From Escherichia phage HK3, in the sequence record PP526765: 64,000 bases of DNA, one strand, 5' to 3'. Below the pieces are notes generated by a model, which searched no databases, was not told the origin of the DNA, and was given only the letters and a program-made list of their open reading frames with translations. Positions 1,921-35,922 of the stretch are shown piece after piece (within the stretch, counting starts at the first letter, position 1; each line of letters begins with the position of its first letter). A program made the position numbers and the translations under genes.

Positions 1921-2454
1921 ATGTATCTGTCAAATCTAAAACGTTCGGCTGCAATGTCAGTTCTAAGACTCAGCTTTGAAGAACGTCAAGAGTTCATTGA
2001 CTCTCACCAATATGACCCTTCTAACTCTAATCACATGATTCTCTGGAATCGTGACAGCACTCGTGAAAGAGCACTATTTCGCTATTACCCACATTACACC
2101 ATAGATAATCTGTATGAATGTTTTGTTGTGAAGAACACCATTGCAGTGCTCAATAAGCTTTGTAGATACACAGGTAATCAAGCCTTCACATTAGGTCACC
2201 ACAAGCCTGTTACAAAAGGTGGTGAGCATCACTGTACAAACTGGTTTATCCAAACTAAAGCTGATAATCAGAAGCAAGGAGATAACCTCCTAAGTACTCC
2301 TAAGATGACCTATGAAGAGCAAGAGAAATATATCAAAAATAATATGCCAGATGTGCTTGACAACAACTATACAGATTTGGCAATATCTCTCCTGTTGAAG
2401 TTCGAGACAGTTTATAGGGCAACTTACAATGGCAGTAACAAACGTAACTTTTGA
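1921..2454 (+). CDS. putative HNH-type homing endonuclease
   Basis: motif LGHHKPVTKGGEHHCTNW resembles the HNH core (HH..KGG...N); inserted between nrdG and the Prs-like gene. Confidence 0.45.
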   Translation: MYLSNLKRSAAMSVLRLSFEERQEFIDSHQYDPSNSNHMILWNRDSTRERALFRYYPHYTIDNLYECFVVKNTIAVLNKLCRYTGNQAFTLGHHKPVTKGGEHHCTNWFIQTKADNQKQGDNLLSTPKMTYEEQEKYIKNNMPDVLDNNYTDLAISLLLKFETVYRATYNGSNKRNF

Positions 2455-2469
2455 TTGAGAGAGAAAACT

Positions 2470-3351
2470 ATGAAAACTATTATTGAAGCCGTTGTCACCG
2501 CACAAGAGAAATTCTTCCACACAGAAAAATTTAATATCATCCAATTCCCATCTGGAGAAATTGGTGGAAACTTCTCTGAAGATTTTGTTAAGTTTACTGA
2601 GTGTAATGCTGGTAAGATTGACAATGTTATACTTACTGTGCAGGGATATGATAAAGATACACTGTTTGCATTAGCTTTGGCTAAGGATGCCATTGACAGT
2701 CTTGTTCCATATAAATCAGCGATGAAAACCGTTGTTTTCGGGTTCTTACCGAATGCTCGATATGACCGCCATATGTTCAAAGGCGATTCAGCAGCACTGA
2801 AAGCTTTTGCCAACCTCGTTAATGCAATGGGTTTTGATGCAGTATGTACTCTTGACCCTCACAGCAATGTTGCAGAAAACTTATTTAAGTGCTTCCAGAG
2901 CATGAAGCAAAAAGATGTGGCAGTACACTTTGCAAGTGACCCACGCATTGATTTATTGGTAGCTCCAGATGCAGGTGCAGCTAAGAAGACTGAAGAGGCT
3001 GCTAAAGAGGTGGATAAACCATACATCACAATGTCTAAAGTACGCAACCTTAAGACTGGTGAAATTACTGGTATGCGAATCCTTGATGCTGTTGATTTGA
3101 CAGATAAAACTGTCATGATTCTCGATGATATCTGTGATGGTGGTCGAACCTTCATAGAAGCAGCTAAACATCTTCGTGAAGCAGGTGCAAAACGTGTGGA
3201 ACTCTATGTAACTCATGGCATTTTCTCTAAAGGTGTTGAAAACTTACTTGACAATGGTATTGACCATATCTACACTACAAACTCTTTAGGGGAAGCTAAA
3301 GACCGTGGCTTAACACATTATGCCCAAGTTACTGTAATTACCATTGATTGA
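2470..3351 (+). CDS. ribose-phosphate pyrophosphokinase-like protein (Prs family; possibly ADPR-PP synthetase type)
   Basis: PRPP-binding motif ILDDICDGGRTF near C-terminus; ORF track starts at a TTG (2455), first ATG at 2470. Confidence 0.7.
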   Translation: MKTIIEAVVTAQEKFFHTEKFNIIQFPSGEIGGNFSEDFVKFTECNAGKIDNVILTVQGYDKDTLFALALAKDAIDSLVPYKSAMKTVVFGFLPNARYDRHMFKGDSAALKAFANLVNAMGFDAVCTLDPHSNVAENLFKCFQSMKQKDVAVHFASDPRIDLLVAPDAGAAKKTEEAAKEVDKPYITMSKVRNLKTGEITGMRILDAVDLTDKTVMILDDICDGGRTFIEAAKHLREAGAKRVELYVTHGIFSKGVENLLDNGIDHIYTTNSLGEAKDRGLTHYAQVTVITID

Positions 3352-3360
3352 AACTTTATA

Positions 3361-3381
3361 GGGGCTTCAAAGCCCCATTTT
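3361..3381 (+). terminator. hairpin GGGGCTTCAAAGCCCC followed by ATTTTG
   Basis: perfect 6-bp GC stem directly after the Prs-like stop. Confidence 0.5.
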
Positions 3382-3397
3382 GAGAGAGATTAAAAAG

Positions 3398-5179
3398 ATG
3401 ACTAAATCACTTTATGCAGTACCAGCAGGTTTAAACGCGGATGCTTACAAGTCTGGCCATATTTATCAGTATCCTAGTGCAACAGAGTACCTAATGTTCA
3501 ACCTGACACCACGTAGTGATAAATGGTTTAACAGCCCTTTAGCAATTGACGGTGTAGTTGCTTTTGGTATTCAACGTTTTGTTAAAGATTACTTGATAGA
3601 CCACTGGAACACCACCTTCTTTGAACGTGACAAAAAAGAAGCAATTGATGAAATCTTAGAAGTCATGAACGGTGTTCTGGGTAAAGATGCTATTGGTCGA
3701 GAACATTGGGAAGCACTTCACGACTTAGGCTATCTACCAGTTGAAGTATACGCTGTAGAAGAAGGCACAGTTGTTCCTATGCGTGTACCAATGATTGTCT
3801 TCCAGAACACTGTTTCAGGTTTCCATTGGGTAGCGGGGTATCTGGAAGATGCTTTCTCTGCTGAGATTTGGAAGGCTTGCACCATTGCAACTATTGCATT
3901 GCACTACAAACGTATCTGTAAGAAGTGGGCTGACCTTACTTGTGACAATGACTTGCATTTGCCTTATCAGTGCCATGACTTTGCTATGCGTGGTATGTCT
4001 GGCTTTACTGATGACGCATTTAACGCTGTAGGCCACTTAACCAGCTTTAAAGGTACTGACAGTTTCCCTACTGTGTATACGGCTAAACGAATCTATGGAC
4101 AGTCCTACCCAATCTCTGATATTGGCAGCTCTGTACCAGCCACTGAACACTCTGTAATGTGTGCAAACATTGCTTGGGAAGGTGGTAATGAGTTGATTGA
4201 AGAAGAAAGACGCTTTAAAGGTGAGTTACAAACCTTCCGTCGTTTCTTAACAGAAACTTACCCAACTGGTATTGCAAGTGTTGTTTCAGACACTTATAAT
4301 TTCTGGAGAACTGTATCAGAAATCTTACCAGCACTTCGCAAAGAGATTATGGAACGTGATGGAAAACTGGTAATTCGTCCTGACTCTGGCGACCCTGTAC
4401 ATATTGTCACAGGCTATAAAGCAATCCACTTAGAGTGCGCTAAAAAAGCTTATTACGAACACCTAAGCAAGCTGGAAGCAAGCGACACAATGTTGAATGC
4501 TGTTCTGAACATGAAGCTTGAAAACATCAGTTATGGTATTGCTGGATGGCTACTGTCAGAAGGCTACGAGATGGTTGTTGACAGAGAAGACTTTGAAGTT
4601 GCTGATACAGTGATGTTGAAAAATGCTTATATGGTTGGCTCTGCAAACGTTGTAACACGTCCTGTAGCAGAGATTGATGGGGCTATTAAGACCCTGTATA
4701 ACATCTTTGGAGGGACTATCAACTCTAAAGGTTTTAAGGTACTAGATGAACACATTGGCCTTATCTATGGCGACTCTATCACGTTGGAACGTGCAAACGA
4801 AATCTTGAAGCGTTTGTATGAAATGGGTTTTGCAAGCTCTAACGTAGTGTTTGGTGTAGGTTCTTACACTTACCAGTACATGACTCGTGACACTTTTGCA
4901 TTTGCTGTCAAAGCAACTCTTGCAAGCATTGGCGGTAAAGAGATTATGCTTGCAAAAGACCCTAAAACAGATAGTGGTGTTAAGAAGTCTGCTTTTGGTG
5001 GTGTAGCGCCTATGTGGGATGGTGATAAGCTGAAAGCTGTAGATGGCTATGGATTCCAGAGCTTTGCAGATGCACTTGAACATCCAGCTTGTGCTTTACG
5101 TTTAGTCTTTAGCGACTCTGAGCAGTTCGGTTACACAACTCTTGGTGATATTCGAAACAATATTGACAAGCAGCTTTAA
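3398..5179 (+). CDS. nadV: nicotinamide phosphoribosyltransferase-like protein (NAMPT/NadV family; possibly Namat type)
   Basis: NAMPT signature stretches SVPATEHS, VVSDTYNFW, IRPDSGDP; track ORF starts at TTG 3380, first ATG at 3398. Confidence 0.85.
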   Translation: MTKSLYAVPAGLNADAYKSGHIYQYPSATEYLMFNLTPRSDKWFNSPLAIDGVVAFGIQRFVKDYLIDHWNTTFFERDKKEAIDEILEVMNGVLGKDAIGREHWEALHDLGYLPVEVYAVEEGTVVPMRVPMIVFQNTVSGFHWVAGYLEDAFSAEIWKACTIATIALHYKRICKKWADLTCDNDLHLPYQCHDFAMRGMSGFTDDAFNAVGHLTSFKGTDSFPTVYTAKRIYGQSYPISDIGSSVPATEHSVMCANIAWEGGNELIEEERRFKGELQTFRRFLTETYPTGIASVVSDTYNFWRTVSEILPALRKEIMERDGKLVIRPDSGDPVHIVTGYKAIHLECAKKAYYEHLSKLEASDTMLNAVLNMKLENISYGIAGWLLSEGYEMVVDREDFEVADTVMLKNAYMVGSANVVTRPVAEIDGAIKTLYNIFGGTINSKGFKVLDEHIGLIYGDSITLERANEILKRLYEMGFASSNVVFGVGSYTYQYMTRDTFAFAVKATLASIGGKEIMLAKDPKTDSGVKKSAFGGVAPMWDGDKLKAVDGYGFQSFADALEHPACALRLVFSDSEQFGYTTLGDIRNNIDKQL

Positions 5180-5194
5180 AAGTATATGATAAGA

Positions 5195-5216
5195 GGCTCC
5201 TACGGGAGCCTTTTTA
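5195..5216 (+). terminator. rho-independent terminator
   Basis: GGCTCC-TACG-GGAGCC hairpin plus TTTTT immediately after the NAMPT-like stop. Confidence 0.7.
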
Positions 5217-13300: not shown

Positions 13301-14086
13301 ATGGGTATTGTAAAAATCATCAATGGGGATATCTTCTCCGCATTTGATAAAGGTAAGTTTGATATCATTGGTCACGGTTGTAACTGTATGAACTTAATGG
13401 GTGCGGGTATCGCTGACAAGATTTCTAAACTTTACCCAAAAGCATATGAGACCGATACAGAAGTTTATCTGTATGCAGGCGGTATAGGCCACAAACCCTG
13501 TGAAAATTTACTAGGCAACTTCTCTGTAGCACGTTTAGAACAAGGCCGTATAGCTAACCTTTACACTCAGCTTAAGACTGGTAAAGATGCCCGATACAGT
13601 GCTTTAGAGTCATCTTTGAAACAACTTAACAGATACTGTGAAGTTAATCAGTTGAAGAAAGTTGGTTTACCTATGATTAGTGCAGGTATCGGTGGACTTG
13701 ACCCTCAAGCCGTCACCGTTATCATTAATCAGGTGATGAAGAGTGTAGATGTCTATCTATATGTCTACGAAGGAGAGATGTACCACAAGTTACGCTCAGG
13801 TTGGAAGAACTACTGTGAACCAGAATACTTTGCAGGTGTAGTAGTGTTCACTGACGATGCAGTTACCCTCTTCAGACGAAGAAAAGGTAAGGTACATCAA
13901 AGTAACCCTCCGGTTGAAAAGATGTCTCTAAGTAACGCTCTAGTTACCCACCTGTCGAAGAGCAATCACAGAATTGCAGTAACATTTGGCAGTGATGCAG
14001 ATACATATATCTATGCAAGAACTGATGAGGATGTTGAGGGAATTTTCTCTTCACCGGAAGTTACCTTCTTAGACGCAAAGAACTAA
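13301..14086 (+). CDS. macro-domain protein, TARG1/OARD1-like ADP-ribose hydrolase fold, with C-terminal extension
   Basis: GDIF...DIIGHGCNCMNLMGAGIA and LPMISAGIGGLD match the TARG1-type macro motifs (GDLF...HCISEDCRMGAGIA...MPRIGCGLD) as recalled. Confidence 0.55.
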   Translation: MGIVKIINGDIFSAFDKGKFDIIGHGCNCMNLMGAGIADKISKLYPKAYETDTEVYLYAGGIGHKPCENLLGNFSVARLEQGRIANLYTQLKTGKDARYSALESSLKQLNRYCEVNQLKKVGLPMISAGIGGLDPQAVTVIINQVMKSVDVYLYVYEGEMYHKLRSGWKNYCEPEYFAGVVVFTDDAVTLFRRRKGKVHQSNPPVEKMSLSNALVTHLSKSNHRIAVTFGSDADTYIYARTDEDVEGIFSSPEVTFLDAKN

Positions 14087-26165: not shown

Positions 26166-26630
26166 TTACTTTGGGTATACACTGTCAAGATAAATGTCAG
26201 CTTCCATTCTACGTCTGTTTTTCAGACCGTTTGAAGTGACCTTCTTACCTTTGACCGTAACCTTGTTCCACCACTGCATAGCTTCTGCACAACCGCCCTT
26301 ATTACCAGCGTTGTGGCGCTTGATAAATGTGGAGTCCTGCATAGCTGTGATGCCGATGTTGTATGTTTCACTTACAAGTGCATCGAACTCATTCTGAGAA
26401 GTTGGAACCTTGATAGCTTTATTCACTGCTGCAACGAACTTCTCAACATCTGCGAGAAGATACTGTTCAGCTTGTTCAGCAGTAATTTTCATACCCATCT
26501 TAACAGGTTTTCCGTCCATACGGATTGTACCATACCCGATTGTCGGGATTCCGGCAGAATCTTCGTAAGCCTCTAACTTCAGACCTTCAAAGAACTTAAT
26601 AGCTTCTAAACCTTTTCTTGAGAGTTGCAT
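26166..26630 (-). CDS. endolysin, T4-lysozyme-like (GH24)
   Basis: FEGLKLEAYEDSAGIPTIGYGT reproduces the T4 lysozyme catalytic E-(8)-D-(5)-T spacing. Confidence 0.8.
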   Translation of the reverse strand: MQLSRKGLEAIKFFEGLKLEAYEDSAGIPTIGYGTIRMDGKPVKMGMKITAEQAEQYLLADVEKFVAAVNKAIKVPTSQNEFDALVSETYNIGITAMQDSTFIKRHNAGNKGGCAEAMQWWNKVTVKGKKVTSNGLKNRRRMEADIYLDSVYPK

Positions 26631-27262
26631 TATTCCTCCCCTGCTGGGTTAACTGTAACTGTTGCTGCATTAGATGTCACAGAGCCACCTGCACCAGTAA
26701 CTACACAGGTGTAGCTTCCTGCATCAGCAGCAGTTGCACCTTCTTTGGTATAAGTTGCAGCAGTTGCTTCTGGGATAACTTCCTCACCCTTCTTCCACTG
26801 ATAGCCTGTTGCATCAGTAGCAACAACACTTAGTGTCAAGGTGTCACCTTCAGTGATTTCTTGATTGGTTGGCTGCTGAGTGATTGATGGTGGTTTGACA
26901 GCACCTTTCAACTTAGCATTCAGCATTGAGAATGGTTTAACTCTTGCCAGCCATTCACAGTAAATTGTGTCAACATCTTTACCATTGATGATTGCATATT
27001 GTAAGTCCATGAAGAAGTCAGAAGTTCTCATTTGAGCACCGATGCTGTAAAGCAACTCATCACTAAATGGGACTTTATAGGCTGGTTTGTAGTCAAACTT
27101 CTTAACTTCTGCAATATCAGCTTCAGGCCAATACGAACTATATGTAAGCGGTAAAATAGCCTCTTGATATGTTCTAAAATCATATCTCTTACCAGCCTTT
27201 ACATTTGCAACGAAGCCCTTCACAAACTCTTTGAAGTCTGGGTAAGTCTTTGCTTTAATCAT
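26630..27262 (-). CDS. protein with N-terminal domain paralogous to the next gene and a C-terminal Ig-like domain
   Basis: C-terminus GDTLTLSV..GYQW..DAGSYTCVV..VTV has an I-set Ig signature; N-terminus aligns by eye with ORF 27259..27630. Confidence 0.55.
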   Translation of the reverse strand: MIKAKTYPDFKEFVKGFVANVKAGKRYDFRTYQEAILPLTYSSYWPEADIAEVKKFDYKPAYKVPFSDELLYSIGAQMRTSDFFMDLQYAIINGKDVDTIYCEWLARVKPFSMLNAKLKGAVKPPSITQQPTNQEITEGDTLTLSVVATDATGYQWKKGEEVIPEATAATYTKEGATAADAGSYTCVVTGAGGSVTSNAATVTVNPAGEE

Positions 27263-29338: not shown

Positions 29339-30754
29339 ATGAGCAAGTTATTTAAACATGCGCACCTTCATGCAGGTCGAACTGAAAATGGTGCTGTAAA
29401 CCATACTTCATCAATGTCTGCTCTGGTAGACTTCTACAAAGCCGCTGGTTCAAGCCGTAGCAATGTAGAAATCTTACCAGACCTGTTCTACAAAGCTTTG
29501 CGTGAGGATGTTGATGTTGCAGTTCGTATTTTACTGCATATGCGAGATGTACGAGAAGGTATGGGCGAGCGTAAAGCTTTCCGAACTGTTTTGCTTCAAG
29601 CGATTGAAGATAAGGTTTTAGAACCTACACAGGTTCTTCGCATTATGGATAAGATTGCAGAACTTGGTCGTTTTGATGACTTCAAAATCTTTGTAGGTAC
29701 TCGTTTTGAGACAGACGCCTTCAAACATTTAGAAGCAGCATTACTAGACCCTGCAACAGCAGGTTTAGCAGCTAAGTGGTTGCCACGAGTAAAACCACGC
29801 CACAAACAGTTTGTAAAACGTTTCTGCAAGTTTGCAAACTTAAGTGAGAAGGAGTATCGCACACTGTTGTCTGCACTATCTGATACGGTTGAGCAAAAAA
29901 TCTCTGCTAATGAGTTTGGTAAGATTGACTACAGCAAGATTCCTTCACTAGCTGCTGCACGTTACCAAAAACTCTTTAACCGTAAAGATGGTGAACGTTA
30001 CAAAGCTTACATCGAGTCGCTCTCAAAGGGTGAGGCTAAGATTAATGCTGGTGCTGTTTACCCATACGATGTGATTAAATCTATTAAGTATGGTAATGCA
30101 GATGTTGCTAATGAGCAGTGGAAAGCACTTCCAAACTGGATGGCAGAAGGTGAAAACATCTTGTGTATGACTGATGTTTCAAGCTCAATGTCTTGGGTGA
30201 ATCTTGGTTCAATCACTGCCCTTGATATTGGTGTATCACTTGCTTTGTATGTAGCAGAACGCAATACTGGTTGCTTTAAAGATGAGTTAATGGTTTACTC
30301 AACAAACCCTCACTTCATTGAACTGAGTGGTGATTTACGAAACCGTCATCGTCAGGTGATGCGTCACGTTGAATATGGCTCAACTAACTTACAAGCAGCT
30401 TTTGACCGTATTCTTGAAATAGGTAAGAGAAACAACTTGACTCAGAAAGATATGCCAAGTAAGCTTATTATCTTCTCTGATATGGAGTTTAATCAGGTTG
30501 ATGGTGCAAATGGTCATACAAACTTTGAAGCAATTCAGAGTAAGTACAAAAAAGCCGGATACGAAATGCCACAACTAGTATTCTGGTACTTAGCAAACCG
30601 TAATGGTACTTGCGAAGTATCTGTTAAGGATAATGGTGTAGCAATGGTATCAGGGTTCTCTCCAGCCACTTTAAAAGCTCTACTTGGTGGTGAGAAGTTT
30701 GACCCAATCAGCGTAATGCTCAAAGCAGTAATGATTGACCGTTATATCTGGTAA
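29339..30754 (+). CDS. vWA-domain protein with MIDAS motif; candidate Ro60/TROVE-like (Rsr-like) RNA-binding protein
   Basis: C-terminal vWA signature ILCMTDVSSSMS (DxSxS); about 470 aa with helical N-terminal region; sits directly upstream of the tRNA/ncRNA cluster; TROVE assignment is inference. Confidence 0.4.
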   Translation: MSKLFKHAHLHAGRTENGAVNHTSSMSALVDFYKAAGSSRSNVEILPDLFYKALREDVDVAVRILLHMRDVREGMGERKAFRTVLLQAIEDKVLEPTQVLRIMDKIAELGRFDDFKIFVGTRFETDAFKHLEAALLDPATAGLAAKWLPRVKPRHKQFVKRFCKFANLSEKEYRTLLSALSDTVEQKISANEFGKIDYSKIPSLAAARYQKLFNRKDGERYKAYIESLSKGEAKINAGAVYPYDVIKSIKYGNADVANEQWKALPNWMAEGENILCMTDVSSSMSWVNLGSITALDIGVSLALYVAERNTGCFKDELMVYSTNPHFIELSGDLRNRHRQVMRHVEYGSTNLQAAFDRILEIGKRNNLTQKDMPSKLIIFSDMEFNQVDGANGHTNFEAIQSKYKKAGYEMPQLVFWYLANRNGTCEVSVKDNGVAMVSGFSPATLKALLGGEKFDPISVMLKAVMIDRYIW

Positions 30755-30919: not shown

Positions 30920-30996
30920 CTCTGTTTAGCTCAGCTTGGTAGAGCGTTCCGTTTGGGGCGGTAAGGCCGGAGGTTCAAGTCCTCCAACAGAGACCA
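30920..30996 (+). tRNA. tRNA-Pro (anticodon UGG)
   Basis: 7-bp acceptor CTCTGTT/AACAGAG, D-stem GCTC/GAGC, T-arm GGAGG-TTCAAGT-CCTCC, encoded CCA. Confidence 0.6.
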
Positions 30997-31003
30997 AATT
31001 AAT

Positions 31004-31081
31004 GTTCCAGTAGACAAAATGGTATAGTCACCACTCTTTCAAAGTGGATATTTGAGGGTTCAAATCCCTTCTGGAACGCCA
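31004..31081 (+). tRNA. tRNA-Glu (anticodon UUC)
   Basis: perfect acceptor GTTCCAG/CTGGAAC, anticodon stem CCACT/AGTGG, loop CTTTCAA, T-loop TTCAAAT, CCA. Confidence 0.6.
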
Positions 31082-31087
31082 GTTTTG

Positions 31088-31162
31088 ACAGAAGACCAAT
31101 TACAGCAAACTTAATCTTATTCATCTGAAGGTAAATCGGACAAAGAAGAGATTTGGTCTGGT
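31088..31162 (+). ncRNA. structured spacer element a (conserved 5' CAGAAGACCAATTACAGCAA, 3' TTGGTCTGG)
   Basis: 7-bp long-range stem AGACCAA/TTGGTCT; one of four sibling elements. Confidence 0.45.
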
Positions 31163-31172
31163 CATTAAGAAT

Positions 31173-31249
31173 TGCGGGTATAGAGAAAGGGCGTCTCACA
31201 TGTCTCATTAGCATGGTATCGGCAGGTTCGACTCCTGCACCCGCCTCCA
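31173..31249 (+). tRNA. tRNA with CAU anticodon (elongator Met or Ile-lysidine type)
   Basis: loop CTCATTA, D-stem GAGA/TCTC, T-arm GCAGG-TTCGACT-CCTGC, CCA; mismatch at acceptor pair 1:72. Confidence 0.5.
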
Positions 31250-31255
31250 AATTTA

Positions 31256-31320
31256 CAGAAGACCGTTTACAGCAATATTTATTAAATTTTTAGCGGAAAA
31301 ATTGAAAGATACGGTCTGGT
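31256..31320 (+). ncRNA. structured spacer element b (5' CAGAAGACCGTTTACAGCAA, 3' ACGGTCTGG)
   Basis: stem AGACCGT/ACGGTCT; GT/AC replaces the AA/TT of elements a and c. Confidence 0.45.
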
Positions 31321-31333
31321 AATACTAAACATG

Positions 31334-31410
31334 GTTAGGAAGCACATAAGGTATGTGCGGTCGCCTGTTAAGCGAATGGCACAGGGTTCGAATCCCTGAC
31401 TAACCGCCAA
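31334..31410 (+). tRNA. tRNA-Asn (anticodon GUU)
   Basis: D-stem GCAC/GTGC, loop CTGTTAA, T-arm CAGGG-TTCGAAT-CCCTG, CCA. Confidence 0.55.
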
Positions 31411-31481
31411 ATTTAGGAGAGAAGCGATTGCTCACCGATTTGTAAGGTGCAAGTCCTTAGCCTGAATAGAATAATAAAATG

Positions 31482-31569
31482 TGTCGTTATCCCGTAGATG
31501 GTAGCGGTGGGGACTGTAAATCCCTTGTCATTGAGACTCGGTAGGTTCGACTCCTACACGGCACACCAA
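31482..31569 (+). tRNA. tRNA-Tyr (anticodon GUA), long variable arm
   Basis: acceptor GTGTCGT/ACGGCAC, anticodon stem GGGGA/TCCCT, loop CTGTAAA, 88 nt, T-loop TTCGACT, CCA. Confidence 0.6.
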
Positions 31570-31630
31570 TTTTGAGAGGGCTATTTAGCCCCTCCCTTAA
31601 AGAGTTCTTACGAGTACCCTTTAAAGGAGC

Positions 31631-31704
31631 AGAAGACCAAATACAGCAAGTTACTTAAAATTTCAAGCCAATTCAATTTTGAAAAATTTAAAACTTGGTC
31701 TGGC
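31631..31704 (+). ncRNA. structured spacer element c (5' CAGAAGACCAAATACAGCAA, 3' TTGGTCTGG)
   Basis: stem AGACCAA/TTGGTCT. Confidence 0.45.
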
Positions 31705-31717
31705 TCAACAAATTTAC

Positions 31718-31848
31718 AGAAGACCGTTTACAGCAAAACTTAAACAATCTATTTCTCGGTAAAGAAAAGGTGAAGGTTCGATTCCTTCACTCGGCAGATG
31801 TCGAGTTGGTGTAATGGTAGCACTTAAGATGATAAACAACGGTCTGGT
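31718..31848 (+). ncRNA. structured element d with circularly permuted tRNA-like module (candidate YrlA-like Y RNA)
   Basis: order: 5' stem strand AGACCGT (31722) - T-arm GAAGG-TTCGATT-CCTTC (31773-31789) - acceptor-like hairpin ACTCGGC-AGAT-GTCGAGT (31790-31807) - D-arm GTGT-AATGGTA-GCAC (31810-31824) - 3' stem strand ACGGTCT (31840-31846). Confidence 0.5.
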
Positions 31849-31849
31849 A

Positions 31850-31985
31850 ATTATCTTTGCAGTAGCTTATGTGGCTAATTATATCGTCCCATGAGTGCCG
31901 ATGAATTTCCTTAGCATGATTCTAGATTAGCTTAATAGGAAATGACTCTACAGACCCTTTAGCAAGGTCTGCGTAGGTTACTGCA
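31850..31985 (+). ncRNA. element enclosed by a perfect 16-bp inverted repeat (AATTATCTTTGCAGTA ... TACTGCAAAGATAATT) around 104 nt
   Basis: arms at 31850-31865 and 31970-31985; interior has further hairpins (AGACC...GGTCT); no ORF. Confidence 0.5.
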
Positions 31986-31999
31986 AAGATAATTTAATA

Positions 32000-32075
32000 G
32001 AAGTGTAGCAGAATGGTGATGCGGCAGACTTTTAATCTGATAGGTGATGGGTTCGAATCCCTCCACTTCTACCAA
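32000..32075 (+). tRNA. tRNA-Lys (anticodon UUU)
   Basis: perfect acceptor AGAAGTG/CACTTCT, loop CTTTTAA, T-loop TTCGAAT, CCA; T-stem only 3 clean pairs. Confidence 0.5.
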
Positions 32076-32079
32076 TATG

Positions 32080-32156
32080 GTTCAGTCGCAGATAAGGTAA
32101 TGCAGGGGTCTCATAAGCCCTATGAATGTGGGTTCGATTCCCATCTGAGCCTCCAA
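32080..32156 (+). tRNA. initiator-like tRNA-fMet (anticodon CAU)
   Basis: anticodon stem-loop GGGCTCATAACCC with three G:C pairs closing the loop; T-arm GTGGG-TTCGATT-CCCAT; CCA. Confidence 0.55.
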
Positions 32157-32158
32157 TG

Positions 32159-32234
32159 CTGTGAAAGCACATATGGATGTGCATTCGGCTGATAACCGAA
32201 AGGAAGAAGGTTCGAATCCTTCTCACAGTACCAA
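32159..32234 (+). tRNA. tRNA-Ile (anticodon GAU)
   Basis: D-stem GCAC/GTGC, anticodon stem TTCGG/CCGAA, loop CTGATAA, T-arm GAAGG-TTCGAAT-CCTTC, CCA. Confidence 0.65.
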
Positions 32235-32249
32235 TTTCAATAAAGTTGT

Positions 32250-32278
32250 TGACATTGAGATGTGACCACTTTATAGTA
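32250..32278 (+). promoter_or_regulatory. internal promoter TTGACA-N17-TATAGT inside the tRNA cluster
   Basis: read directly. Confidence 0.55.
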
Positions 32279-32481
32279 ACCTTAGTTTTCGTTGCGTAGC
32301 GTCTATTTTGCAAATTTAAAATAAATGCAAACGACAATGTTTTTCTGGCAGTAGCTTGATAGGCTAAACACCAGTGAGGTCTTCCAATCCCTCATCAAAG
32401 AATTTGGCGTACTAGCCCACGGTATGATTAATAAGGTGGGCATCTTTAAGGGTTTTTTAAGAGAGTCTTTAAAGATTAATG

Positions 32482-32558
32482 CACCCTTAGTTCAACTGGA
32501 CAGAACAAATGACTTCTAATCATTAGGTTACAGGTTCGAATCCTGTAGGGTGTGCCAA
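32482..32558 (+). tRNA. tRNA-Arg (anticodon UCU)
   Basis: D-stem GTTC/GAAC, anticodon stem AATGA/TCATT, loop CTTCTAA, T-arm ACAGG-TTCGAAT-CCTGT, CCA. Confidence 0.65.
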
Positions 32559-32700
32559 ATAGTTAGCAGATTGCTTAGACGACCTTATCGGGTCTCCGTG
32601 TAGGGAGGTGGTCTGTATCTCATGTTTTCCAGAACATGTAAATAATCTGAGAAGGGGCTTTACAGTGTTGAGATAATACGGTAAGCTTCGAATTATAGTA

Positions 32701-32783
32701 TGGGACGATGTTAAGACTCTAAGGCATGAGCAACGGCTTCCAACACCGTTTCAAAGGGATTCAACTCCTCCGTCCCATGCCAA
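32701..32783 (+). tRNA. atypical tRNA-like gene (possible anticodon CCA, Trp); irregular D and T arms
   Basis: perfect 7-bp acceptor ATGGGAC/GTCCCAT plus G-CCA, but T-stem has only 3 clean pairs and the D-region is 26 nt. Confidence 0.35.
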
Positions 32784-32796
32784 AGTCTTATTAGGG

Positions 32797-32886
32797 GTAG
32801 GTAGCGGCTAATGGTAGCCAAACTGTCTTGAAAACAGTTGCCACTGTAGAGATACGGTGAGGGTTCGACTCCTTTACTTACCGCCT
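32797..32886 (+). tRNA. tRNA-Ser (anticodon UGA), long variable arm
   Basis: anticodon stem ACTGT/ACAGT, loop CTTGAAA, 20-nt variable arm, T-loop TTCGACT; CCA not fully encoded. Confidence 0.55.
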
Positions 32887-33040
32887 AATAAGATTTAAAG
32901 CCAAGCTTCATTCGGATGTTGCTTTGGTATCCCTCGTGTATTGTCGTACACACTGATAAAGCACCTAGTAGGTGTCACGGAGAAGAGATAATATCAAGCT
33001 CTCCAAAGGTTCTAGTCACCGGATTAAACAAGACTATGCA

Positions 33041-33063
33041 AAGACCTGTTTAGGTCTTTTTAG
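33041..33063 (+). terminator. short hairpin AAGACC-TGTTTA-GGTCTT followed by TTTTT inside the tRNA cluster
   Basis: read directly; may instead be a processing signal. Confidence 0.35.
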
Positions 33064-33141
33064 AGGGCTTCTAAGGTTATTACAGCTTGTTGTGGAACCT
33101 TGTTGCTTAGGTTCTTAGAAGTTCTCTAAAAAGATTTAATG

Positions 33142-33218
33142 CACCTATAGCCCAACTGGTAGAGGCAGCAGACTTAGAATCTGCTCAGTGTGAGTTCGAA
33201 TCTCTCTAGGTGTACCAA
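33142..33218 (+). tRNA. tRNA with anticodon UAG (Leu by anticodon; short variable arm)
   Basis: 6-bp anticodon stem AGCAGA/TCTGCT, loop CTTAGAA, T-loop TTCGAAT, CCA; 77 nt. Confidence 0.45.
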
Positions 33219-33225
33219 ATTAATG

Positions 33226-33301
33226 CAGGTGTAGCAAAATGGTTATGCGGCTGACTCTTAATCAGTAAGACGATGGTTTCAATTCCCTCCACCTGTACCA
33301 G
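33226..33301 (+). tRNA. tRNA-Lys (anticodon CUU)
   Basis: loop CTCTTAA; T-arm paralogous to the Lys-UUU gene; CCA. Confidence 0.45.
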
Positions 33302-33307
33302 ACATTG

Positions 33308-33383
33308 GGGATGTAGTTTACATGGTTAAAACATAAGTTTTGCAAACTTAAGTACAGGGTTCAATTCCCTGCTTCTCCACCAA
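33308..33383 (+). tRNA. tRNA-Ala (anticodon UGC)
   Basis: G3:U70 pair in acceptor stem (Ala identity), D-stem GTTT/AAAC, anticodon stem TAAGT/ACTTA, loop TTTGCAA, CCA. Confidence 0.7.
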
Positions 33384-33389
33384 TTAGTG

Positions 33390-33464
33390 CATCCATAGTT
33401 TAAACGGGAAAATTACAGTCTTCCAAACTGAGGTTGAGGGTTCGATTCCCTCTGGATGCTCCAA
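33390..33464 (+). tRNA. tRNA-Gly (anticodon UCC)
   Basis: perfect acceptor GCATCCA/TGGATGC, loop CTTCCAA, T-arm GAGGG-TTCGATT-CCCTC, CCA. Confidence 0.65.
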
Positions 33465-33470
33465 ATAATG

Positions 33471-33547
33471 CTGCTTTCGTATAATTGGCTATTACACATC
33501 CCTTGTAAGGATGGAAATGCAGGTTCGAGTCCTGTGAGCAGCACCAA
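33471..33547 (+). tRNA. tRNA-Thr (anticodon UGU)
   Basis: anticodon stem CATCC/GGATG, loop CTTGTAA, T-loop TTCGAGT, CCA. Confidence 0.6.
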
Positions 33548-33551
33548 TTCA

Positions 33552-33637
33552 GAGGTCAAGTGAAAGACCGCTGGTGTCAACTGAAGACCGTAACAAATTC
33601 CACGGAGTTGAGTTAGCGGCACAACTTCAGACCTCTT
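33552..33637 (+). ncRNA. structured spacer element closed by AGAGGTC / GACCTCT stem, containing a GAAGACCGT motif
   Basis: 7-bp inverted termini; interior shares GAAGACCGT with elements a-d. Confidence 0.35.
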
Positions 33638-33642
33638 TCATA

Positions 33643-33717
33643 CTCGCTTAGTTTATATGGTAAAACACCACCCTTACAAGATGAAGAAAAAGGTTCAAGT
33701 CCTTTAGTGAGTACCAT
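33643..33717 (+). tRNA. tRNA-Val (anticodon UAC), weak anticodon stem
   Basis: D-stem GTTT/AAAC, loop CTTACAA, perfect T-arm AAAGG-TTCAAGT-CCTTT, CCA. Confidence 0.4.
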
Positions 33718-33718
33718 G

Positions 33719-33796
33719 TTCCAATATCCCAATTGGCAGAGGATGCAAGCTCAAACCTTGTACTAGTGACGGTTCGAATCCGTCTTGGAACACCAA
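33719..33796 (+). tRNA. tRNA with anticodon CAA (Leu by anticodon; short variable arm)
   Basis: perfect acceptor GTTCCAA/TTGGAAC, anticodon stem GCAAG/CTTGT, loop CTCAAAC, T-arm GACGG-TTCGAAT-CCGTC, CCA. Confidence 0.5.
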
Positions 33797-33910
33797 TTTT
33801 GGGAGAGCACTATGAGTGATAAGTCAATAGCAAAAAAGTTTAGAGCGTCATACCTAAACAGACGTAAAAACAAAGATTGTGAAAAACTGTATGGTGTTCT
33901 TGTAGGTAAG

Positions 33911-33986
33911 CAGGATTAGTTCAAATGGATAGAGCAGCAGTCTACGAAGCTGTTAATAGGGGTTCGAATCCCTTATCCTGCGCCAA
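33911..33986 (+). tRNA. tRNA-Arg (anticodon ACG)
   Basis: perfect acceptor GCAGGAT/ATCCTGC, loop CTACGAA, T-loop TTCGAAT, CCA. Confidence 0.65.
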
Positions 33987-34004
33987 TTTTAAGAGGCTAT
34001 TTAG

Positions 34005-34562
34005 ATGAGATATTTGAAGTATGCTTCATGGATTTTCCTAGCTTTGTTAGACCCATTGGCAGCAACCTTAGCAGTTATCTTAGCACCTTTTGTAGTTCCA
34101 TTCTACAGTGAGAAGAAAGGGCACTTACCTTTCGGCTTCAGATGGATGGAGACATATGACAACCCAATTGATGGTGATAAAGGTCATGTTGAACGATGGG
34201 CTAAGATTAGAAAGATTGGTAAGCTTGGTGTCTATATGCAGAGAGTCGGTTGGCTCTGGAGAAACAAAGCTTATAACTTCTCTTACCATGTGTTAGGAAG
34301 AGATGTAAAAGATGTTACTAAGTGGAAAGGTAATATCAACGTAAGCTCTGACCCTGAAGATAATCAGACAGGTTATCTCCTAATGTGGAACAGTAATGCT
34401 TGGGGATTATTCGCTTTTATCCCATCAATTAAAGTCTTTGGTAAACAATTCTACTGGAGAATTTATATTGGGTGGAAACTAAAAAGTGTTGTCCCAGAAG
34501 AAAGAGCATTCTCAAGGGAAAGAGTTATGTTGGCATTCTTTATTCATCCACTGAGAAAGTAA
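34005..34562 (+). CDS. hydrophobic protein encoded inside the tRNA cluster (185 aa)
   Basis: ORF track; AAGAGG Shine-Dalgarno 9 nt upstream; hydrophobic N-terminal helix. Confidence 0.55.
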   Translation: MRYLKYASWIFLALLDPLAATLAVILAPFVVPFYSEKKGHLPFGFRWMETYDNPIDGDKGHVERWAKIRKIGKLGVYMQRVGWLWRNKAYNFSYHVLGRDVKDVTKWKGNINVSSDPEDNQTGYLLMWNSNAWGLFAFIPSIKVFGKQFYWRIYIGWKLKSVVPEERAFSRERVMLAFFIHPLRK

Positions 34563-34570
34563 AGATTTAA

Positions 34571-34646
34571 AGGGGATTAGTTTACAAGGTTAAAACCTCG
34601 GTCTTTGAAATCGAAGAAGTTGGTTCAATTCCAACATCCCCCGCCA
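34571..34646 (+). tRNA. tRNA-Gln (anticodon UUG)
   Basis: D-stem GTTT/AAAC, anticodon stem TCGGT/ATCGA, loop CTTTGAA, perfect T-arm GTTGG-TTCAATT-CCAAC, CCA; A1:C72 mismatch. Confidence 0.6.
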
Positions 34647-34648
34647 AT

Positions 34649-34727
34649 GCTCCATTACTCCAATTGGCAGAGAGGCCAGACTTAAAATCTGTGTTATGTA
34701 TCGGTTCGAATCCGATATGGAGTACCA
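34649..34727 (+). tRNA. tRNA with anticodon UAA (Leu by anticodon; 7-nt variable region)
   Basis: acceptor GCTCCAT/ATGGAGT, loop CTTAAAA, T-arm ATCGG-TTCGAAT-CCGAT, CCA. Confidence 0.45.
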
Positions 34728-34732
34728 AATTT

Positions 34733-34808
34733 AGCGGTATAGCATAACTGGCAATGCAACAGTCTCTGAAGCTGTCTTATTAAGGTTCAAATCCTTATGC
34801 CGCTGCCA
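34733..34808 (+). tRNA. tRNA-Gln (anticodon CUG)
   Basis: D-stem GCAT/ATGC, anticodon stem ACAGT/GCTGT, loop CTCTGAA, T-arm TAAGG-TTCAAAT-CCTTA, CCA. Confidence 0.65.
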
Positions 34809-34839
34809 CTTCTAAGGATTCTTACGAGAGTCCTTAAAT

Positions 34840-34915
34840 GTGGCCTTATCATAAACGGTAATGACCCATGCTGTGAACATGGTCTATACGGGTTCAAATC
34901 CCGTAGGTCACCCCA
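34840..34915 (+). tRNA. tRNA-His (anticodon GUG)
   Basis: D-stem TCAT/ATGA, perfect anticodon stem CCATG/CATGG, loop CTGTGAA, T-arm ACGGG-TTCAAAT-CCCGT, C73, CCA. Confidence 0.65.
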
Positions 34916-34920
34916 ATTTA

Positions 34921-34997
34921 TAGTCCAAGTAGCTTATATGGTTAAAGCGCGTGTCTGAAAAACATGAGAAGAGGGTTCAAATCCCACTGGATTACCA
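34921..34997 (+). tRNA. tRNA-Phe (anticodon GAA)
   Basis: anticodon stem CGTGT/ACATG, loop CTGAAAA, T-loop TTCAAAT; acceptor register uncertain by 1 nt. Confidence 0.5.
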
Positions 34998-35013
34998 ATT
35001 TCAAAGGTGCTTA

Positions 35014-35748
35014 ATGAAAGAGATGACAGAACAAGGTAAGGAGATTTTTAATCTCTTAAAAACTGGTAAAGGGTTTTCTAACCCCCTTATTACTGGTGCA
35101 GCAGTTCTCGGTGGAACCGTAGCTGCCTCTACATCACTTGTAAGCTCTATTAGCTCTGTAACAGACCCTACAATAAAGGATAAACTTATTGCTGCTGGAC
35201 TTACAACAGTTCTGCTTAACAGCTTTACAACGAGTCTGACAAGCACTACAGCAACTACTAAGACCCTAACAGACTATGGTCAAAAATCTATTGATGAGTT
35301 TTCATCACGTATGCAGGTAGCAAAGGGATACTCCAATGTTATGGGTGCAGTAGGAGAACAAGTTGGTTGTACACCATTTAGTGGTATTATGGGTGTTGCT
35401 ACAGAGTATGGTCAAAAAGCTATGGATACAATTAACAGCACACTAGATGGCGTTAATGATGTATTAAGCGACTTACAGGATGCTATTGATAAAGGTCTTA
35501 ATACTATTTCTGATTTAGCTAACCAAGCTGTTAGTAAGATTAATGAAGGTATCTCAAAGATTACAGCTTATGCAGATGAAGTTGTGCAGATGATTGAAGA
35601 AGAAGCTGCCCTTATTGCAGAGTACCTTAAAACGAATATCAATGGGTTCTTAGCAGGTATCTTACCAGACTGGTTTGATGATGCTTGTAAAACTGGTGTG
35701 ATTGACACTATTGCAACACCAGAAATGAAGAACGCATTACAGAAATAA
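35014..35748 (+). CDS. Ser/Thr-rich hypothetical protein (about 244 aa)
   Basis: ATG at 35014 after AAAGGTG; track ORF 34951..35748 would overlap the tRNA-Phe gene. Confidence 0.5.
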   Translation: MKEMTEQGKEIFNLLKTGKGFSNPLITGAAVLGGTVAASTSLVSSISSVTDPTIKDKLIAAGLTTVLLNSFTTSLTSTTATTKTLTDYGQKSIDEFSSRMQVAKGYSNVMGAVGEQVGCTPFSGIMGVATEYGQKAMDTINSTLDGVNDVLSDLQDAIDKGLNTISDLANQAVSKINEGISKITAYADEVVQMIEEEAALIAEYLKTNINGFLAGILPDWFDDACKTGVIDTIATPEMKNALQK

Positions 35749-35749
35749 C

Positions 35750-35842
35750 GGAAGATTAACCCTAAAAGGTAAGGGAGCAGTTTGCTAAACTGCCAGTAGC
35801 TGAGAAATCGGTGTACCAGTTCAAGTCTGGTATCTTCCTCCA
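35750..35842 (+). tRNA. tRNA-Ser (anticodon GCU), long variable arm
   Basis: acceptor GGAAGAT/ATCTTCC, perfect anticodon stem GCAGT/ACTGC, loop TTGCTAA, 21-nt variable arm, T-arm ACCAG-TTCAAGT-CTGGT, CCA. Confidence 0.65.
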
Positions 35843-35846
35843 ATTT

Positions 35847-35922
35847 GAATCCGTGACAGAAATGGCTATGTACCTGTCTGCAAAACAGGTTTATAAGGGT
35901 TCGAGTCCCTTCGGATTCTCCA
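35847..35922 (+). tRNA. tRNA-Cys (anticodon GCA)
   Basis: perfect acceptor GAATCCG/CGGATTC, anticodon stem CCTGT/ACAGG, loop CTGCAAA, T-arm AAGGG-TTCGAGT-CCCTT, CCA. Confidence 0.7.

Follow-up and report, generated by a model that had tools for sequence, protein, structure and literature searches.

The locus considered here raises the question of what two adjacent genes of Escherichia phage HK3 encode, viz. whether a protein resembling phosphoribosyl pyrophosphate (PRPP) synthetase (Prs) and a protein of the nicotinamide phosphoribosyltransferase (NAMPT) family constitute a classical salvage route to nicotinamide adenine dinucleotide (NAD+), or whether they are the two enzymes of NAD+ reconstitution pathway 1 (NARP1). 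The window, i.e. the whole stretch of DNA that was analysed, consists of 64,000 nucleotides (nt) of HK3 (record PP526765); it is a Felixounavirus-type (Ounavirinae) phage genome, and all coordinates given below are positions within it. The adjacency of a Prs-like and a NAMPT-like gene had been pointed out in a preliminary description of this DNA, and both are indeed found as open reading frames (ORFs) on the plus strand: adps (2470..3351), coding for a Prs-like ADP-ribose pyrophosphokinase (Adps) of 293 amino acids (aa), and namat (3398..5179), coding for a NAMPT-like nicotinamide ADP-ribose transferase (Namat) of 593 aa. The first assignment is based on the ORF itself, its Pfam domains and its identity with gp79 of Escherichia phage JohannRWettstein (Bas63), and the second on identity with gp80 of the same phage, structure matches, the catalytic core and an adenine-binding clamp. 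Based on these results, the two genes are, with a probability that we put at about 95%, the NARP1 operon (Adps plus Namat) of a Felixounavirus-type phage.

The evidence that carries this conclusion comes in the first place from Bas63, as NARP1 was discovered in genes 79-80 of this phage by means of deletion and metabolomics (10.1101/2024.02.11.579819). The Adps of HK3 shows 94% identity (276/293) to bas63_0079 (gp79) and its Namat 98% identity (584/593) to bas63_0080 (gp80), in both cases with no gaps. None of the substitutions relative to Bas63 (17 in Adps and 9 in Namat) is found at a known functional residue, and for Namat this means that 0 of the 9 changes fall on catalytic or clamp residues. 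Further, the gene order of the window and its cluster of 25 tRNA genes match those of Bas63. The preliminary description had favoured NARP1 over a classical Prs and Nampt pair, and the 94% and 98% identities to the Bas63 operon, together with the presence of the clamp motif described below, bear this out. In Bas63, deletion of genes 79-80 led to a roughly 20-fold sensitisation to SIR2-HerA and to deeper NAD+ depletion, the effect of the operon persisted in a ΔpncC ΔnadR host, and ADP-ribose pyrophosphate (ADPR-PP; m/z 720.01) was seen in vivo only when the operon and the defence system were both present (10.1101/2024.02.11.579819). With the homologues from Bacillus phage SpβL1, Adps converted ADP-ribose (ADPR) and ATP into ADPR-PP and did not use ribose-5-phosphate (10.1101/2024.02.11.579819), and Namat formed NAD+ from ADPR-PP and nicotinamide, with ADPR-PP preferred over PRPP (10.1101/2024.02.11.579819; PMC12774641).

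If the HK3 proteins act as these homologues do, then the following sequence of events would be expected during infection. NAD+-depleting defences (e.g. SIR2-HerA, Thoeris, DSR1/2 and SEFIR) cleave NAD+ into ADPR and nicotinamide; Adps would then move the pyrophosphate of ATP onto the 1'' position of ADPR, and Namat, by Nampt chemistry, would join the resulting ADPR-PP with nicotinamide to yield NAD+ and pyrophosphate. ADPR-PP would be selected over PRPP by K42-W43 and Y490/Y494, the residues of an adenine-binding clamp at the entrance to the active site of Namat. NAD+ would be regenerated directly, with neither a nicotinamide mononucleotide (NMN) intermediate nor an NMN adenylyltransferase (Nmnat) involved.

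With regard to Adps, a check that had been proposed earlier was whether the protein groups with characterised Adps proteins or with canonical Prs, and the results favour the former. In BLASTP comparisons, the HK3 protein scores 124 bits (38% identity) with the Adps of Vibrio phage Gary and 92 bits (33% identity) with that of SpβL1, whereas its score with E. coli Prs is 63.5 bits (27% identity). Further, it misses all of the NCBIfam cut-offs for Prs equivalogs by a wide margin (e.g. 112 vs 296 bits), which argues against its being a true PRPP synthetase. The placement of the protein rests on its near-identity to Bas63 Adps, which was a query in the published tree. In the published phylogeny, 97% of the members of the Adps clade have a Namat gene in their immediate vicinity, and it is the adjacent Adps gene that defines NARP1; the adps gene of the window likewise has a Namat gene as its neighbour. 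Residue K190 of the protein aligns with the catalytic lysines that were mutated in the SpβL1 (K162) and Gary (K192) proteins, and also with the lysine of the IHKERK motif of human PRPS1; the equivalent of the catalytic lysine in B. subtilis Prs is K197. The matches of Adps in the PDB are to Prs structures only (E=1e-16), and it shares with Prs the fold, the motifs for ATP binding and pyrophosphoryl transfer (the ARxDR loop, DxH and K-x-R) and the scaffold of the ribose-phosphate loop (DD..G..T). However, it differs from Prs in carrying variants that are common to Adps proteins, viz. DPHS in place of DLHA, PDAGAAKK in place of PDIGGVVRA and DDICDGGRT in place of DDMIDTGGT, and the C-terminal region of about 30 residues found in Prs is missing from it.

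For Namat, the distinction can be made at the level of individual residues. The catalytic core is conserved in its entirety (D15, Y17, F195, R198, D221, A248, H251, R327, D329, G458 and D459), and it contains the equivalents of the reference residues of SpβL1 Namat (D13, Y15, F189, R192, D215, the catalytic histidine of ATEHS, R306 and D308). A structural study from 2026 has described a two-part adenine-binding selectivity clamp that separates Namat from Nampt, in which a variable loop supplies a further stacking residue (PMC12774641); the third position of this loop is taken either by Arg or by a Lys or Tyr with the stacking residue next to it. In the HK3 protein, the helix motif of this clamp reads GSYTYQYMTRD (residues 488-498), where Y490 and Y494 correspond to F392 and Y396 of SpβL1 Namat; the Φ3 position is occupied by Met, whereas in the consensus it is mainly Asn or Val. 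At the same site, the Nampt proteins of phage KVP40 and Xanthomonas (Xcc) show GGGLLQQLDRD and GGALLQKVDRD, respectively. The variable loop of HK3 Namat is S40-D41-K42-W43, with Lys in the third and Trp in the fourth position as described for Bas63 Namat, and K42-W43 probably provides the adenine stacking. The preliminary description had held that sequence alone cannot separate NARP1 from salvage; however, this view is outdated, as the published clamp motif (PMC12774641) separates the two and is present here. The comparisons of sequence and fold agree, since SpβL1 Namat (9W5W/9W5X) is the best PDB match by both (E=2e-127; Foldseek TM 0.95), followed by H. ducreyi NadV (1.5e-103), Xcc Nampt (1.7e-51) and mammalian NAMPT (about 1e-40). 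The bit score with SpβL1 Namat is 429, compared with 178 for Xcc Nampt and about 140 for human NAMPT, and the AlphaFold model of the protein (mean pLDDT 93.5) superposes on Namat at a TM of 0.95. Namat homologues of about 496 aa with the full GS[YF]TYQYxTRD motif were also seen in Klebsiella michiganensis, Cronobacter, Kosakonia, Phytobacter, Kluyvera and Erwinia, on contigs of multi-megabase size; their identity is 46-48% (about 40% for Erwinia), and they fit the reported bacterial copies of NARP1.

The length of Namat had been singled out earlier as unusual (594 aa), and in this respect the description was correct. The protein is about 95 aa longer than is typical of its family (the phrog_448 profile has 500 positions and solved homologues are 482-501 aa), but its length is 593 aa, as the figure of 594 counts the stop codon, and it is no sign of novelty, since Bas63 Namat has the same length and the same insertions. 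The extra length is due to two lineage-specific insertions that are seen on comparison with SpβL1 Namat and cellular Nampt. The smaller one (aa ~258-272) comprises about 15 aa and follows the catalytic histidine; the larger one (aa ~340-427; 4415..4678, plus strand), which accounts for most of the extra length, comprises about 88 aa and follows the RPDSGDP strand. In tblastn searches the larger insertion has matches only in 253 Ounavirinae-type records (43-100% identity). It is confidently predicted to form a small α/β unit (pLDDT about 95 in context; 88.5 with pTM 0.76 when modelled alone), and its predicted structure has no recognisable structural relative. Other Namat lineages, among them that of the functional Vibrio phage Gary enzyme, carry unrelated insertions at this site, and as Bas63 Namat carries the same insertion as HK3, its presence is compatible with an anti-defence function. 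Among FelixO1-like phages, Adps is far more divergent (77-81% aa identity in many records) than the insertion segment of Namat (mostly at least 95%), a contrast for which recombination within the operon, or a difference in selection between its parts, could be responsible.

Some points weigh against the identification of the pair as NARP1, and they need to be considered together. The first concerns the source of the biochemistry. Although the in vivo phenotype and the detection of ADPR-PP relate to the Bas63 operon, which is 94-98% identical, the enzyme reactions were established with the SpβL1 and Gary homologues, whose identity is only 31-48%; the SpβL1 homologues were chosen since purification of the Bas63 protein was poor (10.1101/2024.02.11.579819). 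The second is that the larger insertion subdomain of Namat has no assigned role. The third is that the pair still goes by the names Prs and NAPRT in Pfam, PHROGs and NCBIfam alike: Adps matches Pribosyltran (PF00156, E=2.1e-12), Pribosyl_synth (PF14572, 3.4e-9) and phrog_619 'ribose-phosphate pyrophosphokinase' (1.7e-98), and Namat matches NAPRTase (1.3e-34), NAMPT_N (2.3e-5) and phrog_448 'nicotinamide phosphoribosyl transferase' (1.7e-201). It had been noted from the outset that such pairs are usually annotated as PRPP synthetase and nicotinamide phosphoribosyltransferase, and these names, as well as those in the matching annotated records, agree with this. NCBIfam was considered as a discriminator and set aside, as it contains no Adps or Namat model and returns only names of Prs subfamilies and NAPRT. 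Weighed against these points, the pair shows every defining feature of NARP1 that is testable in silico. Its orthology, the conservation of its motifs and residues, its fold, its gene adjacency and the absence of Nmnat are established; by analogy, its enzymes would have the same activities as the homologues from Bas63, SpβL1 and Gary, and the pair would be expected to counteract NAD+-depleting defence during infection.

The alternative that survives best does not replace the NARP1 reading but adds to it, and it concerns a third gene. A Macro-domain protein of 261 aa is encoded at 13301..14086 (plus strand), about 8 kb and some 17 ORFs downstream of namat; it is a 'putative phosphatase' (Pfam Macro PF01661, E=7.5e-8; phrog_335 'phosphatase') in which the Macro domain is N-terminal and is followed by some 100 additional C-terminal residues. 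If this protein dephosphorylated the ADPR-1''-phosphate produced by aRES-type defences, then it would feed ADPR to Adps, and HK3 would possess a split form of the three-gene pathway NARP1-AP, in which a Macro-domain ADPR-1''-phosphate phosphatase (Adpp) accompanies Adps and Namat and, in Vibrio phage Gary, supplies Adps with ADPR from within the operon. In favour of this, the protein aligns over the whole Macro domain with Adpp proteins linked to NARP1 (27-36% identity, E down to 8e-17; e.g. 27% and 7e-13 with Gary Adpp, and 34% and 8e-17 with another NARP1-linked Macro protein), and it keeps every position that does not vary in an alignment of seven Adpp sequences. It also has the same top PDB relatives as Gary Adpp (OARD1/TARG1), and both of them match Poa1p weakly. 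Further, the published survey covered only two genes on either side of NARP1, and it would therefore have missed the gene at 13301..14086. However, the gene is distant from namat, its product carries the additional C-terminal region, and the Macro family is found in 2834 phage records (997 from Escherichia phages), compared with 1157 (177) for Adps homologues, from which it follows that most carriers of the family lack NARP1. A specific linkage between the Macro family and NARP1 was rejected on these counts. The aRES paper does not report phages of the Bas63 type. Due to these considerations, the Macro protein should be regarded as a hypothetical candidate accessory of NARP1, suggested by its sequence, and its operation as the phosphatase step of a split NARP1-AP is rather unlikely. 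A broader version of this proposal, in which Felixounavirus-type phages use such a split pathway so that the Macro protein lets NARP1 defeat aRES-type defences, and in which the insertion of about 88 aa adds a regulatory or protein-interaction function that the SpβL1 enzyme lacks, is speculative and we regard it as doubtful.

The next alternative is that the gene names are to be taken literally, viz. that a true PRPP synthetase and a true Nampt produce NMN, which is then converted into NAD+ by host NadR or by PncC-dependent routes. The database names described above are in its favour, as is the ability, retained by Namat homologues in vitro, to form NMN from PRPP (PMC12774641). However, the nearly identical Bas63 operon makes ADPR-PP in vivo and works in a host lacking both pncC and nadR, SpβL1 Adps yields no product from ribose-5-phosphate (10.1101/2024.02.11.579819), the clamp motif of Namat is present in place of the Nampt motif, and Adps scores far below every Prs equivalog cut-off. 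The search for an Nmnat points in the same direction. In tblastn searches of the window and of the whole Bas63 genome with the KVP40 Nmnat (NatV), the best match was at chance level (E=1.8), and Pfam scans detected no nucleotidyltransferase domain in the unassigned ORFs of the window of at least 126 aa, nor in those Bas63 ORFs which, by comparison of gene order, come from the part of the genome beyond the window; further, the Bas63 annotation lists no Nmnat. The earlier observation that the window contains no NMN adenylyltransferase is in agreement with the tblastn and Pfam results, and although an Nmnat gene elsewhere in the genome would have spoken against NARP1, none was found in the close relative Bas63 either, whose genome is complete. 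As no Nmnat was found, neither a self-contained classical salvage route nor NARP2 is supported. For the Bas63 orthologue classical salvage is largely refuted, and for HK3 it is very improbable. The remaining possibility, a pathway of the NARP2 type in which Nampt and Nmnat build NAD+ from PRPP, nicotinamide and ATP, is in keeping with the presence of a NAMPT-family gene, but its probability is negligible given the lack of an Nmnat homologue, the Namat motif found in place of the KVP40-type GGGLLQQLDRD and the adjacent Adps gene by which NARP1 is defined in the published phylogeny.

The identification of the pair as a NARP1 operon is accompanied by the following arrangement of the locus. The two genes have the same orientation, and the start of namat lies 47 nt past the stop of adps. 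The gene adps extends from an ATG at 2470 to a stop codon at 3349-3351, with an in-frame TTG at 2455, and namat from an ATG at 3398 to a stop codon at 5177-5179, with an in-frame TTG at 3380; an identical purine-rich stretch, TTGAGAGAGA, precedes the ATG of both. Between them a hairpin (GGGGCT-TCAA-AGCCCC, 3361-3376) followed by ATTTT can be read from the plus strand (3361..3381), and it is retained in Bas63 with an identical stem and a sole change in the loop. The terminator scan made no call at this position because the T-run is too short; the element may either terminate transcription weakly, and so attenuate the transcript, or contribute to RNA stability. Terminator-like hairpins bracket the pair, one at 1881-1903 (from the terminator scan) and the other, a strong one, directly 3' of namat at 5191..5214 (plus strand), where a 10-bp stem with 5 G-C pairs is followed by a T-run; the latter is likely the 3' end of the transcription unit. 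Between the upstream hairpin and adps there is an ORF of 177 aa (1921..2454, plus strand), homologous to Bas63 gp77, whose stop lies 15 nt before the adps ATG and which, judging from this position, may be co-transcribed with adps and namat. It belongs to phrog_3500 (function unknown, 1.6e-92) and shows a weak match to an HNH endonuclease (phrog_2214, E=6e-5), and no Pfam domain above threshold was found in it. A NARP1-AP operon is recognised by a Macro-domain Adpp within two genes of NARP1, and the RyDEP-extended form by a RyR-domain glycosidase in the operon. Scanning of five ORFs on each side gave no Macro match, no Pfam match of the RyR type was seen in the neighbouring ORFs, and there is no additional gene of the RyDEP kind between adps and namat or beside them. 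Therefore, the locus represents a minimal two-gene NARP1 rather than an operon-encoded NARP1-AP or RyDEP form. At the nucleotide level, the 2.9-kb region matches 257 phage records (80-99% identity), nearly all of which belong to FelixO1-like phages of Escherichia, Salmonella, Shigella and Citrobacter. Elsewhere in the window, the tRNA genes are clustered at 30920..35922 (plus strand), colinear with the Bas63 cluster, and just upstream of them a protein of 471 aa (29339..30754, plus strand) shows DUF2828 and DUF7788 along with a weak vWA-like match. An ORF with an Ig-like domain beside the endolysin (26630..27262, minus strand) is apparently a shorter variant of bas63_0124 (210 vs 460 aa).

The value of recognising this pair is mainly for annotation, as both the domain databases and the matching phage records still carry the labels PRPP synthetase and nicotinamide/nicotinate phosphoribosyltransferase. 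The recognition of NARP1 helps to predict which defences (viz. SIR2-HerA, Thoeris I, DSR1/2 and SEFIR) fail against such phages, and it is of relevance to the choice of Felixounavirus phages for therapy. What novelty remains lies in the insertion subdomain of Namat and in a possible Adpp acting in trans.

The relationship of the HK3 pair to the known systems is clear when these are compared in turn. With NARP2 of Vibrio phage KVP40 (NadV and NatV) and the cellular Nampt proteins (human, Xanthomonas and H. ducreyi NadV), it shares the NAMPT fold and the residues for coupling nicotinamide to the ribosyl moiety; however, HK3 has no Nmnat partner, and the aromatic GSYTYQYMTRD replaces the GGGLLQ..DRD loop. 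In the case of the NARP1-AP of Vibrio phage Gary (Adps, Adpp and Namat), the similarity extends to Adps (38-39%), to Namat (about 40% over the first 400 aa), to a Namat insertion that likewise follows the RPDSGDP strand and to a homologous Macro protein, but in Gary the Macro gene is inside the operon, whereas the HK3 homologue is unlinked and has the extra C-terminal region. The NARP1 of SpβL1 (PDB 9W5W/9W5X) has the same two-gene architecture, Adps catalytic lysine, Namat core and clamp-helix motif, with a TM of 0.95, and it differs in its lower identity (31-33% for Adps and 48% for Namat), in the use of R40 rather than K42-W43 in the clamp loop for stacking of the adenine, and in the lack of both Namat insertions. 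Compared with Bas63, the window lacks bas63_0078 (92 aa, phrog_4726), which lies between gp77 and adps in that phage, and shows the substitutions in Adps and Namat given above. The two phages share the genus, the core gene order (gp77-like gene, adps, namat) with the downstream neighbours, the lengths of both proteins (293 and 593 aa), the Namat insertions, the intergenic hairpin and the ribosome-binding context. The HK3 pair is thus essentially the type example of NARP1 and, therefore, it represents an already known system rather than a new one, and it leaves the current understanding of the pathway unchanged.

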